From Verrucomicrobiales bacterium (GTDB lineage Bacteria; Verrucomicrobiota; Verrucomicrobiia; Methylacidiphilales; JAAUTS01), in contig JAISDC010000230.1 in NCBI GenBank assembly GCA_031265105.1, forward strand, positions 1-40,567: a DNA stretch of 40,567 bases, written 5' to 3'. Shown here piece by piece: positions 4,954 through 40,566 of the stretch. The notes under the pieces were generated by a model. That model worked only from the letters and a program-made list of their open reading frames with translations. It searched no databases and was not told where the DNA came from. The first letter of the stretch is position 1, and every line of letters starts with the position of its first letter. The translations under genes were made by a program, and so were the position numbers.

Positions 4954-5020
4954 CACCACGAAGACACGAAGGCACGAAGGTTAAGCAAAAAATCCTTCGT
5001 GCCTTCGGGTCTTGGTGGTG
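4954..5020. repeat. Hairpin element with 8-nt-periodic arms (CACGAAGR family), followed by an orphan arm of a related family at about 5033-5048
   Basis: 27-nt arms CACCACGAAGACACGAAGGCACGAAGG (4954-4980) and its inverse (4994-5020), 2 mismatches, 13-nt A/T spacer. Lies between convergent genes. Confidence 0.9.
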
Positions 5021-6277: not shown

Positions 6278-6355
6278 TTTTCACCACGAAGGCACGAAGG
6301 GAGACAGTTTATAAAAATAAACAAACTGTAGCCCTTCGTGTCTTCGTGGTGAAAA
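6278..6355. repeat. Hairpin element, CACGAAGR family
   Basis: 24-nt arms TTTTCACCACGAAGGCACGAAGGG (6278-6301) and inverse (6332-6355), 1 mismatch, with an inner ACAGTTT/AAACTGT stem. Confidence 0.9.
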
Positions 6356-9622: not shown

Positions 9623-9979
9623 TCAGCGGTGCCGCGTCATGGTCACGCTGACAAAGCGGGTGGTCGGGATGATAAATTTGCGGACTTCTACCGTGACCGC
9701 GCTGACCTTGAACTCCGTCAGAATCACCGCGCACAAGTCCGCGGCCAGCGTTTCAAGCAACCGGCGGGGCCGCGCGCCGGCGCTGTGTTTGACGGTTTCG
9801 CACACTTGGAAATAATCCACGGTCAGCGCCAGGTCATCGGTGGCGGCGGCGGCAGCGAGCGACGGCGGGGTCAGGGTCAGCGACACTTCCAGCCGCTGCG
9901 GTTGGGCGCGTTCCTCGTCGGTCACGCCGAGGCGGGCGCTGACGGTGAGGCGGTCGATGTGAATTTGGTCGGACGTCAT
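9623..9979 (-). CDS. folB: Dihydroneopterin aldolase
   Basis: LGVTDEERAQPQRL, DDLALTVDY, LLETLA and VEVRK. Confidence 0.92.
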   Translation of the reverse strand: MTSDQIHIDRLTVSARLGVTDEERAQPQRLEVSLTLTPPSLAAAAATDDLALTVDYFQVCETVKHSAGARPRRLLETLAADLCAVILTEFKVSAVTVEVRKFIIPTTRFVSVTMTRHR

Positions 9980-9985
9980 GGTTTT

Positions 9986-10639
9986 TTATTTGTCGCGCCT
10001 GCCGTCAAGCGGCGCGGACTGCCGGACGAGATACTCTTGCAATTCGCGCAAATCGTTGAACAGCAAATCCGGCGCGGCGGCTTGCAGCATGGCCGGCGTG
10101 TTGTAGCCGGTCAGCACGGCGCAACTGGCGACGCCGCCGTGTCGGGCGGTGGCGATGTCGTGCTCCATGTCGCCCACGAACAGCGTGGCCCGCGGGTCCA
10201 GGTCGAACTCCGCCAGCAGCGCGTGGATGACTTCGCGTTTGTCGCGGACTTGCACGCAGGCTTTGGTGAAGTATGTCGCCAGGCCGAGCCGGGGCGCTTG
10301 CGCCGCGTAATGCTCGGCGTGGATGCTGCTCAGGAGAAACAGTTTGCGGCCCGCGGCGCGGCAATAATCCAGCAGTTCTTTCGCGTGCGGCAGCAGCGGG
10401 GTGTCCGCTTCCAGCAATTTGAACGCGTCCGTGAAGTTGCGGTCAATCTCGGTCATGGCCGCTTCCGGCAGGTGGCGCGCGTAAAATTCCGTGAAGGGCA
10501 GGCAAAATTTTTCCCGAAATTCCGTCAACGTCAGCGGCGGCCGGCCGTAATGGGTGAAGATTTTATTGGTCGCGTCCAGCACCGCCGGCAAATCGTCCAC
10601 CAGCGTGCCTGACCAGTCGAAAATAATGTTGTTGAACAT
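9986..10639 (-). CDS. HAD-family hydrolase (phosphoglycolate-phosphatase-like)
   Basis: FDWSGTLVD motif I and FVGDMEHDI motif IV. Confidence 0.9.
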   Translation of the reverse strand: MFNNIIFDWSGTLVDDLPAVLDATNKIFTHYGRPPLTLTEFREKFCLPFTEFYARHLPEAAMTEIDRNFTDAFKLLEADTPLLPHAKELLDYCRAAGRKLFLLSSIHAEHYAAQAPRLGLATYFTKACVQVRDKREVIHALLAEFDLDPRATLFVGDMEHDIATARHGGVASCAVLTGYNTPAMLQAAAPDLLFNDLRELQEYLVRQSAPLDGRRDK

Positions 10640-10641
10640 AG

Positions 10642-11085
10642 TTATGGTTTGAAACTCCGGTCACGAAGACGCAAAGGCGCGAAGTTTTTTTGGATGATTC
10701 GTTTGATTCCTTGTTTAATTAAAGGGACGTTAAAGTTGATAAGAAAACCCAATTGCAGATTGGATAATTTGAGGTACGTCAGGAGTTGGGATTGATGCAC
10801 CGGCAACAGCGCCTCGACGGATTTGACTTCCACGATGATTTGGTTTGCCACCAGCAAATCCAGCCGGAAATCGGCAGGTATCCGCTGCCCGTCATAAATC
10901 ACCGGCAGCGGAACCTGTCTGGCAAGCTTGATGTCGCGTTTGTCTAATTCGATGACCAGACACTGCTCATAAATGGATTCCAGCAATCCCGCGCCGAGGG
11001 TTGAATGCACTTTAAAGGCCGCGTCAACCACTTGTTTGGCCAGCCTTTCAATATCGGGATGCAAAATGTTTTTTTGATCAGTCAT
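10642..11085 (-). CDS. GxxExxY protein (PD-(D/E)xK nuclease-like)
   Basis: VHSTLGAGLLESIYEQCL (GxxExxY), FRLDLLV, IVEVKS, QLLTYLK and GFLINFN. ATG at 11085. Confidence 0.93.
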   Translation of the reverse strand: MTDQKNILHPDIERLAKQVVDAAFKVHSTLGAGLLESIYEQCLVIELDKRDIKLARQVPLPVIYDGQRIPADFRLDLLVANQIIVEVKSVEALLPVHQSQLLTYLKLSNLQLGFLINFNVPLIKQGIKRIIQKNFAPLRLRDRSFKP

Positions 11086-11119
11086 TGCTTGGCGTCTTAG
11101 CGTCTTCGTGGCAGGAGTT
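10653..11119. mobile_element. Putative GxxExxY cassette bounded by 32-bp imperfect inverted repeats
   Basis: Arms at 10653-10684 and 11088-11119 (27/32 match), core CACGAAGACGC(A/T)AAG(G/A)CGC(G/C)AAG. Confidence 0.6.
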
Positions 11120-12164
11120 AAAATTGGTTCAACCGGTCGAGCAACTCGCGCAGACGGCCGTGGGTGCGGCGGTCGAATTTCAGGCACAGGCGCGGCAGGT
11201 CGGCCAGTTCGGGTTCGTTGATTTCCTCCGGCAAGGCGCGGCTCATGTGGATGGAGCCGGGTTCGTCGAGAATGTCGGCGAAGTCGTCCTCCAGGCGGCG
11301 GATGGCGCCGGGCGGTACCTCGCGTTGCAGGCGGATGACCAACTCGTCGCCGACGTAGCGGTAGGAGTGGAAATTGTAATAAAAATTCAGGATTTCCTTT
11401 TGCGCCTCCGCCAGGTTGTCGGTGAATTTGATGAGCTTGAAATCGTCCCTGGAAATCACCCCGTCGCGCAGCAAATGCTCGTGCAGGTAATGCTCGAACG
11501 TCCGCCAGAAATTGCCGCCCGGCTCGTCCACGAACACGATGGGCATGATCGGCGCCTTGCCGGTCTGCACCAGTGTGATGACCTCGAAGCCCTCGTCCAT
11601 GGTGCCGAAGCCGCCGGGGAACAGCGCCACGGCGTCGCTGTTCTTGATGAAGTTCAGCTTGCGGGTGAAAAAATAACGGAAGGTGATGAGTTTTTCGTCG
11701 CCGCTGATGGTCGCGTTGGGCCGCTGCTCGAACGGCAACTGGATGTTCAGCGCGAAACTGCGCTCGCGCCCCGCGCCCGCCTGCGCCGCGCCCATGACGC
11801 CGTGGCCGCCGCCGGTGATAATCATGTAGCCGCTGTCCACCATCAGCCGGGCGAAGTCATGCGCGGCCCGGTAAGCGCCTTCCGCCGGCTGGGTGCGGGC
11901 GGAGCCGAAGATGCAGATTTTTTTGTCGGCGGCGTAGGGTTGGAAAACTTTGCTGGCGTAACGCATTTCCTTGAACGCGACGTTCATCTGGTAAACATCG
12001 GCGGGCGCGGGCTGGTCCTGGTTGAACTTCAGCACCGTCACCAGCATCTCGCGGAATTTGTCGTAATCGGCGCTGACGTTGGCGAGGCGCAACAGCTCGT
12101 CGATTTTTTTCTCCAACGCGGCGTCGCCGGTGGTGTAGGCGGTGGGTTTGTTCGGCTTGGTCAT
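11118..12164 (-). CDS. LOG family protein (TIGR00730-like Rossmann fold)
   Basis: IFGSART, ITGGGHGVMGA, FRYFFTRK and PGGFGTMDE. Confidence 0.9.
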   Translation of the reverse strand: MTKPNKPTAYTTGDAALEKKIDELLRLANVSADYDKFREMLVTVLKFNQDQPAPADVYQMNVAFKEMRYASKVFQPYAADKKICIFGSARTQPAEGAYRAAHDFARLMVDSGYMIITGGGHGVMGAAQAGAGRERSFALNIQLPFEQRPNATISGDEKLITFRYFFTRKLNFIKNSDAVALFPGGFGTMDEGFEVITLVQTGKAPIMPIVFVDEPGGNFWRTFEHYLHEHLLRDGVISRDDFKLIKFTDNLAEAQKEILNFYYNFHSYRYVGDELVIRLQREVPPGAIRRLEDDFADILDEPGSIHMSRALPEEINEPELADLPRLCLKFDRRTHGRLRELLDRLNQF

Positions 12165-16456: not shown

Positions 16457-16587
16457 TGGTGGCAGAGTGCCCAAGCCGGGTTGCCCAAATCTCCTCAGTC
16501 GTCATTCCGAGCGGAGCAAAAAAGCAATCCGTGTTCATTTGTGTCCATTTGCTTCACTTCGTTCGGAGCTTGAGGCGGCGTGTAATT

Positions 16588-18049
16588 CTGAAGATTACCC
16601 AGAAGTGATCTGTACAATGAGAGGTGCTTGTGCAAAGTGTAGGGATGAGCAAAGGAAGTGATGAAGTTGGCGAGTGGGCGACCGGGGAATTGGCAGGATT
16701 GAGCAGCGTGGAGGATCCGCGACGGGTGGCCCGGTTGACGCGGTTGTTGGGAGCGTTAAGGCGGCAACCTGGGGCAAGCCTGCCTGAATGTTGTCGCAGT
16801 TGGGCGGAGATCAAGGCGGCTTATCGTTTGATTGAAAGTGAACGGATTGACGCGGCGGCGGTGTTGGACAGTCATGGGTTGGCAACGCTGGGTCGGATGA
16901 GCACGGCGGGGACGGTACTGGTGATTCAGGACACGACCAGCCTGGATTATTCGGGGCGCGCGGCCACCGAGGGGCTCGGGCCGATTGACCGCAAGGGTCA
17001 ATGGCGGCAAGGCTTGTGGTTACATAGCCAATTGTGCGTGGATGGAGCGCACGGCATGGTGTACGGGTTGCTGGATGCCAAACTTTGGGCGCGACCGACT
17101 GACCGCAAACGCCGAGTTTCGACCGAACGCAACCGGCTGTCGCTGGGCGCCAAGGAAAGTTGCCGTTGGTTGGATGGTTATGCGCAGTGCGTGGAGTTAC
17201 GGCGGCAGCTCAAGACGCAGGTGATCAGCGTGGCTGATCGTGAGGGGGACATTTACGAAGTATTCAGGCACTATCAACCGGGTTCGGCTGATCTGTTGGT
17301 GCGGGCGCAGCATGACCGTGAGTTGTTGGGGCAAAACGGACGGGTGCGCGCTTGGTTGTCGGCACAAGCGGTGAACGGGTATCGGTCGGTGACCTTGCCC
17401 GACCGGTCACGCAACGTCACCCTGGCCTTGCGCTGGCAACGGGTAACCATTGCTGCGCCGGTGGATCAACGCCGTTACCATGGAGTCACAGAGCCGGTGG
17501 AACTAACGGTATTGTGGGCACGGGAGGAACACCAACCGGCGGGACTGGACTGGATGTTGTGGAGCACCCTTGAGGTGAAGAACGCAGCGGAGGCCAACAC
17601 GTTATTGAGCTATTATGAACAACGCTGGCAGATTGAAGTGCTGCACCGCATCCTCAAAAGTTACTGCCGTGCCGAACAACGACAATTGCGTACGGCGAAG
17701 CGACTGGGCTTGCTGCTGGTACTCGACCTGTTGGTAGCCGTGTATGTGTTGGGGTTAACACATGCCGCCCGTATTACTCCGAACGCCCCGGCCGATGACT
17801 GGTTAACCCCGGGTGAACAACAAGCCCTCTGCGTGTGGCATACAGGGCCGCCGTTAACCAAGCCTCTCACCCTCTCCGTCGCCGTAGCCAAGCTCGGCCA
17901 ATTGGGCGGACACTTGGGGCGCAAGCACGACGGCCCGCCGGGACCAAAAGCCCTCTACCGCGGCCTCGCCAAACTCCTAACCATTTCAGATACCTGGCAT
18001 GCCGCTGCCGTTTACTTCGCCGCCAATAAAACTTCTGGGTAATCTTCAG
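16588..18049 (+). mobile_element. IS4-family element (IS50/Tn5-like), complete, 1462 bp
   Basis: Perfect 19-bp terminal IRs CTGAAGATTACCCAGAAGT (16588-16606, 18031-18049) and 8-bp target duplication GTGTAATT (16580-16587, 18050-18057). Confidence 0.95.
16645..18042 (+). CDS. IS4-family (Tn5-like) transposase; alternative start 16624
   Basis: KAAYRL, IQDTT, KESCRW, VADREGDIYE, YEQRWQIEVLHRILKS and LGGHLGRKHDGPPG. Confidence 0.94.
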   Translation: MSKGSDEVGEWATGELAGLSSVEDPRRVARLTRLLGALRRQPGASLPECCRSWAEIKAAYRLIESERIDAAAVLDSHGLATLGRMSTAGTVLVIQDTTSLDYSGRAATEGLGPIDRKGQWRQGLWLHSQLCVDGAHGMVYGLLDAKLWARPTDRKRRVSTERNRLSLGAKESCRWLDGYAQCVELRRQLKTQVISVADREGDIYEVFRHYQPGSADLLVRAQHDRELLGQNGRVRAWLSAQAVNGYRSVTLPDRSRNVTLALRWQRVTIAAPVDQRRYHGVTEPVELTVLWAREEHQPAGLDWMLWSTLEVKNAAEANTLLSYYEQRWQIEVLHRILKSYCRAEQRQLRTAKRLGLLLVLDLLVAVYVLGLTHAARITPNAPADDWLTPGEQQALCVWHTGPPLTKPLTLSVAVAKLGQLGGHLGRKHDGPPGPKALYRGLAKLLTISDTWHAAAVYFAANKTSG

Positions 18050-18153
18050 GTGTAATTGCCGCCTGACTCTTGTGGTTAAAAAAACACTTCGTGCCTTGGT
18101 GGTTCTGAGTTTTTTCCTATCAGCCCGGCATGTTATCAATGAAATACGATAAC

Positions 18154-26984: not shown

Positions 26985-27027
26985 AAGTTACTTTTTTCTT
27001 TCTTGTTATCGTTAGTTTTTGTTTTAG

Positions 27028-27068
27028 TCAACACCAGCGGCAGCGGAGCCGCTGATGGTCACGAAATT
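27028..27068. repeat. 41-bp hairpin direct repeat, copy R1
   Basis: TCAACACCAGCGGCAGCGGAGCCGCTGATGGTCACGAAATT; 38/41 identical to R2; contains the KilA-N gene stop. Confidence 0.92.
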
Positions 27069-27919
27069 ATTTGTGGTTTCTCCTTCAATAGTTTCATTCC
27101 TTGGTTTCCCATGAGCGATTTCATTTGTGTAATCGCCACGTTGTTTAATTGTACCAGTCGCTCGCCTTGCGGTAAACTGTGGCGAACGAGCAGGGCGTTG
27201 ACGCTTTCCATGTTTGAGAGCACCACGAGTTGTTCCAACGCGGCGAAGTCGCGGATGTTGCCTTTTTCGCCGGGGTTGTCATCGCGCCATTGCTTCGCTG
27301 TTTTGCCGAACAGAGCCACGTTCAGCAAGTCGGCTTCATTGGCATAGACAGTGCTGATTTGTTTTTTGGTGACGAGTTGCGGGATGATGCATTCCTTGAT
27401 GGCGTCAGTGTGGATGCGGTAATTGATTTTGGAAAGTGTGCGTTGCAAATTCCATTCGAGCGAAAGCCGTTGGTTTTCTTCTCGTTTAAGACGCTTAAAT
27501 TCAGTGACGAGGAAAAGTTCAAATTCCGCCGAAATCCATGCGGCGAATTTAAAGGCAATATCGGAATGGGCAAATGTACCTCCACCATAGCGACCTGACT
27601 TTGAAATCAAGCCAATGGCATTGGTTTCGCTAATCCATTTTTGCGGTGACATCCAAAAATGTGGTTTGGCGGACTCATTTTTAAACCCCTCATAAATGTG
27701 GGGTTTAAAATTTGGGTTGTTTAGCTTTTCCCACAACCCGATATACTCAATCGTGCTGTAGGTGCGAAGCCAAAGGCTGATAACCTGCGACGGACTTTCG
27801 TCGTTGCGGTATCTTGCCATGTCGGTGAGCGAAATATAATCTTCCTTCTCTTTTGAGAACAAGACTATTTTCGTCCCCTGCACAGTTATGGTTTCCTTCT
27901 TCGCCACATTATTCTCCAT
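27059..27919 (-). CDS. KilA-N domain protein
   Basis: EDYISLTDMARY, WLRTYSTIEYIGLWEKLNNPNFK, SPQKWI, SKSGRYGGGTFAHSDIAFKFAAWIS and LSKINYRIHTDAIK. Confidence 0.92.
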   Translation of the reverse strand: MENNVAKKETITVQGTKIVLFSKEKEDYISLTDMARYRNDESPSQVISLWLRTYSTIEYIGLWEKLNNPNFKPHIYEGFKNESAKPHFWMSPQKWISETNAIGLISKSGRYGGGTFAHSDIAFKFAAWISAEFELFLVTEFKRLKREENQRLSLEWNLQRTLSKINYRIHTDAIKECIIPQLVTKKQISTVYANEADLLNVALFGKTAKQWRDDNPGEKGNIRDFAALEQLVVLSNMESVNALLVRHSLPQGERLVQLNNVAITQMKSLMGNQGMKLLKEKPQIIS

Positions 27920-27927
27920 TGCCAACT

Positions 27928-27955
27928 TTAAAGTGGTCAAATTCGACCACTTTAA
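27928..27955. promoter_or_regulatory. 28-bp near-perfect palindrome upstream of the KilA-N gene
   Basis: TTAAAGTGGTC-AAATTC-GACCACTTTAA, lying 8 nt upstream of the ATG at 27919. Confidence 0.7.
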
Positions 27956-27967
27956 TTTTTCTTCTTA

Positions 27968-28008
27968 TCACCATCAGCGGCAACGGAGCCGCTGATGGTC
28001 ACGAAATT
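27968..28008. repeat. 41-bp hairpin direct repeat, copy R2
   Basis: TCACCATCAGCGGCAACGGAGCCGCTGATGGTCACGAAATT; perfect 12-bp stem with a 6-nt loop. Confidence 0.92.
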
Positions 28009-28027
28009 TGTTTTTATTTTTACAAAA

Positions 28028-29074
28028 TTATTTTTCCTTGTTGCTCAGTTTAGTGGTTTGCTCCGCCAGTTCAATCGCCTGCTGTAATTTTTGCTCCAGT
28101 AATTTTTTTTCCGGCAACTGCGTCATGTATTCCGCCACTTTGATTTGTCCGGGATGGTCGAGCAGCAAATAGTTGATTTGCTCAGGCGATTTTTCGCTGC
28201 ACAAAATCAACCCCACGGGCGGGTTCTCGCCCTCCCTCAAATCGTTGCGTTCGAGCCAGCGCAAGTACAATTCCATTTGCCCCTTGTAATCGGCTTTGAA
28301 TTTTCCGAGCTTCAAATCAATCGCCACCAAACACCGCAAGCCGCGATGATAAAACAGCAAATCCAGGTAATAATCTTCATTGTCAATGACAAGTCGTTTT
28401 TGGCGGCCGACAAAGGTGAAATCCGCGCCCATTTCCACGATGAAATTTTGCAGGTTCCGCAAAATAGACGACTCCAAATCTTTCTCGCTGAAGGTGTCTT
28501 TTAAGCCTAGAAAATCGAGGAAATAGGGGTCGCGGAAAACCAAATCAGGCGTGAGTTTTTTCTCATTTTTCAGCGCAGCCAAATCATTGGTGATGGTCAG
28601 CGCCGGTTTTTTGCTAATCGCCGTCCGCTCGTAAAGCATACTGTCCACGCGCTCTTGCAACGTGCGAACACTCCAATGTTCGTGAATGCACATTTGCGTG
28701 TAAAAGTCACGTTTTAGGCTGTCTTCGATGTAAATGAGGTTGCGGATGTGTGTCCAGGTCAATTGTGCACTCAGTGAGTGCACAATTGGCTCTTCTAGAA
28801 CTAACTCATTGAACCTAATGAAGTTATGTAAATTTCTTTTTGAAAAACCCTGGCCGTAACGACGGGTTAGTTCCGCGCTCAACTCTTTGATAACGGTCTT
28901 GCCATAATCAGCTTTTTCGTGCTTCAAAACGCGGTCATTTATCTGCTTACCGATATGCCAATACAAAACCGTCAATTCACTGTTGACCGTAACGGCAACT
29001 TTGCGCCGCGCGCTGTCAATCAGCGAAACGATGGACTGAAGCAATTCGCTTCCGGTTGTTTGTATCTGGCTCAT
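28028..29074 (-). CDS. YhcG / DUF1016 family PD-(D/E)xK nuclease-domain protein
   Basis: VNSELTVLYWHIG, YGQGFSKRNL, LTWTH, WSVRTL, RDPYFLDFL, DLLFYHRGLRCLVAIDLK, GQMELYL and ENPPVGLILC. Confidence 0.94.
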   Translation of the reverse strand: MSQIQTTGSELLQSIVSLIDSARRKVAVTVNSELTVLYWHIGKQINDRVLKHEKADYGKTVIKELSAELTRRYGQGFSKRNLHNFIRFNELVLEEPIVHSLSAQLTWTHIRNLIYIEDSLKRDFYTQMCIHEHWSVRTLQERVDSMLYERTAISKKPALTITNDLAALKNEKKLTPDLVFRDPYFLDFLGLKDTFSEKDLESSILRNLQNFIVEMGADFTFVGRQKRLVIDNEDYYLDLLFYHRGLRCLVAIDLKLGKFKADYKGQMELYLRWLERNDLREGENPPVGLILCSEKSPEQINYLLLDHPGQIKVAEYMTQLPEKKLLEQKLQQAIELAEQTTKLSNKEK

Positions 29075-29095
29075 TTTTTAATCAATTTTTTCTTG

Positions 29096-29136
29096 TCATC
29101 GTCAGCGGCAGTGGAGTCGCTGAGGGTCACGAAATT
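29096..29136. repeat. 41-bp hairpin direct repeat, copy R3
   Basis: TCATCGTCAGCGGCAGTGGAGTCGCTGAGGGTCACGAAATT; 35/41 identical to R2. Confidence 0.9.
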
Positions 29137-29377
29137 ATTTTTTGTTTTTGTCACGTAAATATCCTTCAAATATCTCGGTTATGTTCCTGCCAATAAGCAC
29201 CGCCGACGCCAAAATGCTTATGCTAACCATTATTCCGACACAGGCTAACAGTGGATTACTTCGCCATGCCGTAACCCATGCAAACATAAAACTTCCTCCC
29301 ATGGCAAAAGCTCCAGATATTACCAGCCATTTCATAAACTTTGAGTTTTGAATGTTCATTTTTTGTCCGCTAATCAT
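29135..29377 (-). CDS. Small two-TM hypothetical membrane protein
   Basis: AT-rich 80-aa ORF filling the space between dnaK and R3, co-oriented with the operon, with two hydrophobic segments. Confidence 0.6.
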   Translation of the reverse strand: MISGQKMNIQNSKFMKWLVISGAFAMGGSFMFAWVTAWRSNPLLACVGIMVSISILASAVLIGRNITEIFEGYLRDKNKK

Positions 29378-32589: not shown

Positions 32590-32732
32590 TAAAGTTTTTG
32601 CCGAGAGACGTACATCTCCCTTCCGCTGACGATATATTTCACCATCAGCGGCTAAAATGCCGCTGAGCATCTTCCCGCGCCATACGAAAAAGACTTTGCA
32701 CGGCGAAGGGGGGTGCGGTAGGTTAACAAGTC

Positions 32733-36314: not shown

Positions 36315-37007
36315 GTGAGCAAACAATTCATCAGCATCGTGGCCTGGGGATTTCTCGTTGGCGGCGCTAACGCGCAGTTAACGCCAACGCAACATGCCGC
36401 GCTGGTTGACGAAATGCGCCAGCTCAGCGCCCGGCGCATTGCCTACAACCAGGGCTGGCAGCCGCCCGGTGCCGCCAAAGCCTGGGCGATGGATTGCTCC
36501 AACACTTCCCGGTACATTTACCAAACCGTCTTCGGCCTGCAACTGCCGCGCACCGCTTCCGACCAATATTACGCCTTGAAACAAGTGAAGCGCATTGTTT
36601 ACGCGCCCCGGCTGGCCAACGGCCGGGTGGACACCGAGGCGCTGCTCAGCCAGTTGCGTTCCGGTGATCTGTTGTTCTGGCAATGGACCTATGACATCGA
36701 GCGCGACCCGCCGATCACGCACGTGATGGTTTATCTCGGCCGCACCGCCGACGGCACGCCGAAAATGGCCGGCTCCGCCAGCCGTTCCAAGGGCGAGCAA
36801 ACCAACCGCGGCGGCGTCAATGTTTATGTCTTTGATCCCAACGCCAGCATGGGCGGGGTGAAAAATATCTTCGGCGACTACATCCGCCGCGGCGAATTCG
36901 TCGGCTTCGGCCGCGTCATCAAGCAGGAACCGATCAGCGGCGCCCAGACCGCTGACAGTGTCGGCGGGTATCGCCAGACTGTACCCGCCGTGATGCGGGT
37001 CAATTGA
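36315..37007 (+). CDS. NlpC/P60 (C40) family cell-wall peptidase, exported
   Basis: Signal peptide, MDCSN, LPRTASDQY, GDLLFW and THVMVYLG. Confidence 0.88.
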   Translation: MSKQFISIVAWGFLVGGANAQLTPTQHAALVDEMRQLSARRIAYNQGWQPPGAAKAWAMDCSNTSRYIYQTVFGLQLPRTASDQYYALKQVKRIVYAPRLANGRVDTEALLSQLRSGDLLFWQWTYDIERDPPITHVMVYLGRTADGTPKMAGSASRSKGEQTNRGGVNVYVFDPNASMGGVKNIFGDYIRRGEFVGFGRVIKQEPISGAQTADSVGGYRQTVPAVMRVN

Positions 37008-37019
37008 TTGTTTTTTTTT

Positions 37020-37138
37020 CACCACCAAGACACGAAGGCACGAAGGTCTTTTTAACGAAATTTAACCGCTGAGGCGCGGAGACGCGGAGGTTTTTTTAAT
37101 TTTTAAAATAAAACTCCGCGTCTCCGCGTCTCTGCGTT
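37020..37138. repeat. Composite repeat: orphan CACGAAGR arm plus a GACGCGGA-periodic hairpin
   Basis: CACCACCAAGACACGAAGGCACGAAGG (37020-37046), then 25-nt inverted arms 37065-37089 and 37114-37138 (3 mismatches) around an A/T spacer. Lies between convergent genes. Confidence 0.88.
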
Positions 37139-37148
37139 GAATGTGCTG

Positions 37149-40265: not shown

Positions 40266-40387
40266 AACCAAGGGTTCCGTTGTTTTATATTCGTGGCGTC
40301 ACAGACGCGACAATGCCGAAGATAGCAAAGTCATCCAAGCTGACAACATTTTATTTGGCGTCTCGTCATATTTTACCGAGTGTTTTT

Positions 40388-40471
40388 TTTAACCACGGAT
40401 GGACACGAATGGACACGGATTATTTTTTTGTTTTAAATATCCGTGTTCATCGGTGTCCATCCGTGGTTAAA
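40388..40471. repeat. Hairpin element with 10-nt-periodic arms (GGACACGGAT family)
   Basis: 33-nt arms at 40388-40420 and 40439-40471 (3 mismatches) around an 18-nt A/T-rich spacer. Confidence 0.9.
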
Positions 40472-40566
40472 CAACGCTCGGCCCGGTACAGCTGCCACGA
40501 GTTCCACAGGTTGTGCCACAGCACGTAGAACGTCGGGCCGAGCGCCACCAGCGGGTTGGCGTACAC
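40447..40566 (-). CDS. 3' end of a membrane transporter, possibly bile acid:sodium symporter family (partial)
   Basis: Minus frame reads VYANPLVALGPTFYVLWHNLWNSWQLYRAERCLTTDGHR*. The stop lies inside the repeat arm. Confidence 0.55.
   Translation of the reverse strand: MYANPLVALGPTFYVLWHNLWNSWQLYRAERCLTTDGHR

Follow-up and report, generated by a model that had tools for sequence, protein, structure and literature searches.

GxxExxY nuclease genes framed by periodic inverted repeats in a Verrucomicrobiales bacterium: a likely driver of hairpin turnover at operon junctions

The DNA analysed here (the window) is a stretch of 40,567 nucleotides from a Verrucomicrobiales bacterium (GenBank assembly GCA_031265105.1, contig JAISDC010000230.1), whose genome, hereafter G000, is represented by a 92% complete assembly. 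On its reverse strand lies a run of host genes comprising a TIGR00730/LOG family gene (11118–12164, assigned by profile match), a HAD-family phosphatase gene (9986–10639) and folB (9623–9979, profile match). Inserted between LOG and HAD, on the same strand, is a GxxExxY gene (10642–11085) encoding a predicted PD-(D/E)xK nuclease of 147 amino acids; a longer 181-residue reading from a GTG start was rejected, as it runs into LOG and is absent from relatives. The gene is framed by two inverted arms of 32 bp, the upstream (5′) arm at 11088–11119 (reverse strand), made of a leader and three 8-nt units, and the downstream (3′) arm at 10653–10684 (forward strand). A recomputed alignment confirmed these arms, with 27 of 32 positions identical and a likeness that ends at the arm boundaries, and the layout described in the original prediction is likewise borne out: the inner end of the upstream arm lies 2 nt from the ATG, the other arm is translated in frame as the protein tail NFAPLRLRD, and the unit is packed into the LOG-HAD-folB run with hardly any spacer, the LOG stop codon overlapping the outer end of the upstream arm and only 2 nt separating the GxxExxY stop from the HAD start. 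The GC content inside the gene is 46%, versus 61% for the genome. A chance inverted repeat was ruled out by arm counts in shuffled genomes and by shifted-flank controls. No IS or MITE transposase was recognised between the arms, where TIGR04256 is the sole profile match, and Rfam gave no match at gathering score within the window.

The protein matches TIGR04256 with 152 bits against a cut-off of 35, covering model positions 2–116 of 116, and its closest named homologue, among the matches listed, carries the label Verrucomicrobiales. The motif residues are E36, D76, E86-x-K88 and Q100xxxY104, and I take this E, D, ExK and QxxxY set to be that of the RecB/Cas4 nucleases. Enzymes of that type often act on single-stranded DNA. 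D76, E86 and K88 are invariant in 20 of 20 relatives, and across 116 sequences D76 is kept in 116, E86 in 114, K88 in 116 and Q100 in 116, all four lying outside the search patterns used to collect the sequences. With dN/dS at ∼0.05–0.1, the comparison indicates that the putative catalytic residues are kept under purifying selection. An AlphaFold2 model (pLDDT 85) was compared to known structures, and nearly all top-ranking matches have the restriction-endonuclease-like fold, the best being 3ijm (VIA Z 8.0, rmsd 3.2, 100 residues aligned). Foldseek returned Cas4 (4r5q) at E 2.8e-3, with no match at E ≤ 0.001. The modelled fold is nearest to restriction-like and Cas4/RecB nucleases, with middling scores. 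The family is large: at a limit of E ≤ 1e-20 it counts at least 7,681 relatives, and species genomes are estimated to contain ∼12,000 matching stretches; the function of PF13366 is given as ‘Unknown’ (PMC3424549).

The arms belong to a repeat family that is dispersed throughout the genome, with 1,006 periodic arms (at least two units of C[AG]C.[AG]A[GT]) versus 48 after shuffling. Arm pairs within 150 nt are left-then-right in 244 cases and right-then-left in 4. Leader and unit together define at least ten subfamilies, whose motif counts range from 38 to 291 (these counts, and those of hairpin sites, junctions, loop recurrence and Y1 flanks below, were made over all contigs but that of the window). 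The arms of the gene at LOG-HAD represent a subfamily with a CTCCGGYCAC leader and CGC units. Elsewhere in the genome this subfamily has a further 58 arms, many of them surrounding a second hairpin of a different subfamily. It had been proposed that the repeats at 4954, 6278 and 37020 are empty hairpins derived from the unit of this gene. Repeat comparison identified two full gene-less hairpins, at 4954–5020 and 6278–6355, in line with the first part of that proposal; the third is a single arm (37016–37048, forward strand) behind an NlpC/P60 gene, followed by a gene-less hairpin of another type, the CGC.GAG class (37062–37141). The second part needs correcting: leader (T[AC]ACCAC) and units (CAC.AAG) place all three in a sister subfamily. 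A gene matching this sister subfamily is present at LOG-HAD in a related genome, G002, and not in G000.

Other repeats are found in the window. Repeat comparison located a gene-less hairpin of a 9-nt CAC.GAT class at 40385–40474, and a half arm of the same 9-nt class (16517–16548) adjoins an IS4 end, next to an IS4-family transposase gene (NF033590) with 34-nt inverted repeats at 16573–18064. Short pieces resembling that IS4 end also occur inside hairpins elsewhere in G000 and G002. An autotransporter gene (TIGR01414, 37149–40271) has a periodic hairpin on each side, and another family of intergenic repeats, which share a short palindromic core, is located between genes of the groE and dnaK region (27012–27094, 27952–28034, 29080–29162 and 32639–32666). 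On another contig of G000 (C50, 13355–14309), a two-gene module, by eye an antitoxin and a PIN-type toxin, lies between periodic hairpins.

With genes called by a crude gene caller, 237 of 242 hairpins lie outside genes and 5 inside. By junction type, hairpins are present at 76 of 288 convergent junctions, at 109 of the 1,294 co-directional ones and at 14 of 280 where the genes diverge. These hairpins start a median of 13 nt behind the stop codon (elements in general, 7–13 nt), and the gene-less ones lie a median of 88 nt from the next start, by the same crude caller. Among 135 loops, 53 reappear (85% or more) elsewhere between flanks that are unrelated, versus none after shuffling, which indicates that whole gene-less elements are copied. 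Arm sequence is absent from the recurring-loop clusters of 19 and 10, but present in some smaller clusters. A gene remnant is clear in 1 of 114 loops, and a second was identified at C45; judging from such sequences, gene-less hairpins can be internal deletions of the cassette.

All five GxxExxY genes of G000 are framed by arms, each by its own type. They are divergent single copies, located at LOG-HAD, purM-purH, parB-mutL, between two ABC ATPase genes and at gatA-gatB, all of them co-directional junctions. The flanks of many such genes were then compared, as had been suggested, taking the best 80 loci among species genomes that span many phyla, a set biased to close relatives of the query. 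Leaving out one locus with a short flank and another (L065) lacking its upstream flank, 60 of 78 loci have an inverted match score of at least 26, whereas none of 142 shifted flanks and no mirror control reached 26. A direct match is found in 20 of 78, and the two arms of a locus are strictly its best-matching pair in just 30 of 79. The arms are flipped in 8 of the 60 inverted-repeat loci; acidobacterial GxxExxY genes with such outward-facing arms include L082, L091, L109, L112, L113 and L127. In about a quarter of loci direct repeats replace inverted ones, resembling cassettes in arrays.

Other candidate partner genes for the arms were considered. The one GIY-YIG match of G000 is a 533-residue frame elsewhere, and DUF559 has no match in the 92% complete genome. 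None of the four Y1 transposase genes (PF01797) in G000 carries these arms, and none lies at LOG-HAD; neither of the two four-helix-bundle genes carries them, and these have short-period flanks of their own.

Of 61 related genomes, 38 carry the GxxExxY gene and 23 show a strict three-unit 8-nt pattern; gene and pattern coincide in 22, the gene stands alone in 16, the pattern alone in 1, and 22 genomes lack both, in a comparison where kin are not independent and the 8-nt pattern misses the 9–10-nt classes. The sole pattern-only genome, G004, has 9 matches versus 11 in its reversed control, and 22 of the 23 genomes without the gene have no three-unit arm match. Presence of the gene therefore goes together with presence of hairpins, as anticipated, but the expected correlation does not extend to copy number: G043 has 12 genes and 39 matches, G000 5 genes and 541 matches. 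The lack of scaling could be explained if hairpins spread through host recombination and replication slippage, or through another enzyme, with GxxExxY as a passenger that binds its own arms (for example in self-regulation) or acts elsewhere. In agreement with this, several abundant hairpin classes of G000 (F, H and G, with 220, 164 and 110 arms) have no matching gene in the 92% complete assembly; and G000 does possess four Y1 transposase genes, although these are not framed by the arms. The near-absence of arms from gene-less genomes argues against a passenger, as does the conservation of the predicted catalytic residues.

A further argument against a passenger comes from the arms themselves, whose type, on sequence comparison, tracks protein clade. 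In a quick-search tree built from 92 of 116 extracted proteins (21 lacking an inverted repeat and 3 mixed ones left out, and the protein of the window excluded), of whose 88 forks 47 are open, arm class changes 18 times, versus 36.7 with shuffled labels. A branch with support 97 separates the T-ending arm classes from the rest, and the AAG and GAG classes switch into one another along the tree. In one clade of 25 rows (support 99) spanning seven phyla, all 19 scorable loci have a TC[AGT] leader ahead of their first unit, versus 1 of 47 outside, in a test that was picked post hoc from the tree, with kin that are not independent and with 6 of the 25 rows in the clade and 3 of the 50 others unscorable. 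The five GxxExxY genes of G002 come from far-apart parts of the tree and each has its own arms, suggesting that the link between arm and clade is not a host effect alone.

I next turn to the LOG-HAD junction in relatives, for which 30 HAD loci, from 58 genomes with a match, were examined. Among these loci, a GxxExxY gene is found at the junction only in G000 and G002, and the five genomes of the genus searched form an allelic series. Two are empty (G001 and G004), HAD abutting LOG with 3 nt from the LOG stop to the HAD ATG, and these are relatives of the kind that the original prediction had called for; one (G003) has a hairpin only; and G000 and G002 have different genes. Gene and arms thus form a small cassette whose presence at LOG-HAD varies. 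In G002 the GxxExxY protein is 64% identical and has sister-type arms, while LOG is 97.7% identical. The G003 hairpin is gene-less, with arms of the same type as the G000 element, and its 55-nt loop matches the 3′ end of the G000 gene in 22 of 26 columns (1 in 1,000 shuffles), with a weak match to the 5′ end (44 in 1,000 shuffles). Since the loop keeps a match to the 3′ end of the gene, this hairpin probably arose from such a cassette by internal deletion. The HAD frame is ∼350 amino acids long (extended towards folB) in most relatives, and ∼220 in four of the five genus genomes.

Similar exchanges are seen at other junctions. The closest homologue in G003 (77%, same arm type) lies behind the ortholog of the NlpC/P60 gene at 36315–37007, a junction where G000 has only a half arm and another hairpin. 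Two further GxxExxY genes of G002 occupy sites that hold gene-less hairpins of other types in G000, and one gene of G003 is at a site without a hairpin in G000. Stable synteny without empty alleles had been named as evidence against a mobile unit. While LOG-HAD does have empty alleles, parB-mutL and purM-purH keep the gene across the genus. Between G000 and G002 the parB-mutL gene has a dS of 0.04; at purM-purH the arm type is kept and the flanks are 97% identical, with genes at 74% amino acid identity and saturated synonymous sites. At an apparent purM-purH junction in a genome of another family (L034, in G046) there is a GxxExxY unit of matching arm class, 62% identical to the G000 gene, which suggests that the site is ancient or has been occupied more than once.

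To measure turnover, G000 was compared to a 496 kb sample of the ∼2.8 Mb G002 genome, in which 38 shared hairpin sites were found; 5 were left out, their G002 regions having been picked for carrying the gene, which leaves 33 unselected sites with flanks ∼96% identical. At these, 15 hairpins are unchanged and 18 changed, compared with changes at 21 of 112 control sites that are AT-rich and armless, and at 10 of 204 random controls. The changes comprise class swaps, nested additions, gain or loss of single units and four exact in-place inversions, and only 1 of 33 sites is devoid of any hairpin in G002, by eye. At one site, a nested periodic hairpin of G000 (C280, 16224) faces a hairpin of 7-nt period from an unrelated family in G002 (L169). 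The main change between these close genomes is therefore replacement in place, not insertion at fresh sites. In view of the in-place changes, and of arms that are kept around differing genes, the sites are long-lived and their content is replaced, a pattern that cut-and-repair or plain recombination fits better than frequent jumps. The proposed unit of nuclease and inverted repeats with gene-less derivatives is supported by the arms on most genes, the empty alleles and the deletion derivatives, but its turnover is mostly in place.

The same data bear on two competing explanations. The first is the passenger introduced above: host recombination alone can invert, slip and swap inverted repeats, gain and loss of 8-nt units resembles slippage, and sites also exchange with the unrelated 7-nt repeat family. 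Set against a leader-clade link that spans seven phyla, I consider it unlikely, if a serious contender. The second is that the protein is a transposase of a new type, itself excising and inserting cassette and gene-less hairpins as an ‘autonomous’ element. Insertion sequences and MITEs do consist of a gene between terminal inverted repeats and of internal-deletion derivatives, which the GxxExxY unit resembles, and empty alleles at LOG-HAD and other junctions, identical loops at unrelated loci, nested elements and element starts so close behind stop codons would all be expected of a transposase. Unlike such elements, however, this one lacks a DDE transposase, has periodic arms and turns over mostly in place, with only one shared site hairpin-free in the relative. 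No clean target duplication or fixed junction is seen by eye at LOG-HAD, where few clean empty sites exist and the flanks have diverged; the five genome copies are divergent and single-copy; and a single PD-(D/E)xK domain of 147 amino acids is not known to have strand-joining chemistry. A transposase therefore seems rather improbable.

The arms might also act in RNA. The original prediction offered, as an alternative, an mRNA stem looping the gene out, and the arms could indeed serve chiefly in this way, for operon coupling or processing, with a protein that acts on RNA. In the predicted RNA fold the arms do pair (27/32, mean probability 0.81), and gene-bearing units are tightly spaced, with the upstream stop within 20 nt in 27 of 33 loci and, on the other side, no more than 25 nt to the next ATG in 20 of 30, by the crude gene caller; all five G000 genes are in co-directional junctions. 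However, the bias expected of a selected RNA stem is lacking: there is no excess of G-U pairs on the sense strand, either in gene-bearing loci (40 vs 54) or in G000 hairpins (132 vs 109), and none of the five arm mismatches of the element is a sense-strand G-U. Gene-less hairpins favour convergent junctions and lie far from the next start, inversions are tolerated, and flipped arms and direct repeats both occur among the loci of the cross-phylum set. The stem folds in silico and may ease tolerance of the insert, but from these sequence patterns it does not look like a selected function, and a primary role in mRNA is quite improbable.

Taken together, it is likely that the predicted nuclease drives the copying and swapping of hundreds of related hairpins. 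How it might do so can be outlined, and I consider the chances of the following scheme to be evenly balanced. The nuclease would recognise the outer leader and the phased units of its own arm type, in DNA exposed as a single strand, a hairpin or a cruciform, and would nick its cognate arm in a leader-specific manner. Host repair, template switching or gene conversion would then copy from another arm-bearing element, with no junction made by a transposase, producing swaps, inversions, nesting and, now and then, transfer of the gene, which would in effect home into dispersed hairpins. Deletions would yield the gene-less copies, seeding of new sites just behind stop codons would be rare, and the stem and the tight spacing of stop and start could make the insert tolerable in operons. 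Homing endonuclease genes follow a comparable logic, where a gene-less allele is cut and repair copies the gene-bearing one. The proposed cut-then-copy scheme would be analogous, but it would differ from homing endonuclease genes in having no intron or intein, and in targeting a dispersed repeat family instead of one allelic site.

Two described systems combine an enzyme with dispersed repeats, and the GxxExxY unit works like both while being a member of neither. Ssn/SRM likewise pairs a small single-domain nuclease gene with hairpin-forming flanks, hundreds of gene-less copies and cognate pairs; ssDNA cleavage was shown for Ssn, each SRM is a hairpin of 20–50 nt, and 42% of Ssn genes are flanked on both sides by repeats (PMC11893778), a share to be compared with the 60 of 78 loci found here. 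However, Ssn is a GIY-YIG nuclease (cd10448; PMC11893778), while GxxExxY is of the PD-(D/E)xK type (PF13366) and has no GIY-YIG domain. An SRM also differs from the arms described here, each of which is a non-palindromic array of 8–10-nt units, so that two arms make one stem around the gene. The analogy to RAYT/REPIN that had been drawn holds for the way of working: that system too has abundant extragenic inverted doublets, which in the case of the GxxExxY hairpins are polymorphic between relatives, single-copy divergent partner genes, co-evolution of enzyme and repeat, and long residence in lineages (PMC3337134, PMC8266576, PMC3733652). It fails for the components. RAYT (TnpA-REP) is an HUH/Y1 transposase and REP palindromes are tagged GTAG or CGTC (PMC3337134, PMC8266576, PMC3733652). 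Such a transposase is missing from this locus, and the arms repeat C[AG]C.[AG]A[GT] units behind different leaders. Again unlike RAYT, the GxxExxY gene lies inside one element, in operon junctions, with its tail encoded by an arm. No description of GxxExxY arms and gene-less hairpins was found in the main texts of the literature searched, though supplementary tables (e.g., of PMC11893778 and PMC3733652) might mention them.

A broader reading, which I put forward tentatively, as possible but short of probable, is that a third, independent class of nuclease-and-repeat replicators is driven by GxxExxY proteins and defined by a leader-reading RecB/Cas4-like nuclease, transposase-free homing and subfamily-specific sequence codes; jointly with this, the hairpins dispersed behind stop codons would make hundreds of operon junctions swappable, invertible landing pads. 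How REP-like repeats spread is a long-standing question, and the natural allelic series and in-place swaps described here separate transposition from cut-and-repair. For a very large family with no assigned function, the arms supply a predicted substrate for each protein, and the link between leader and clade provides a ready specificity control, making the function directly testable. If the proteins do prove to be leader-specific nucleases of single-stranded or hairpin DNA, at ∼130 amino acids they would constitute a second small tool family beside Ssn.
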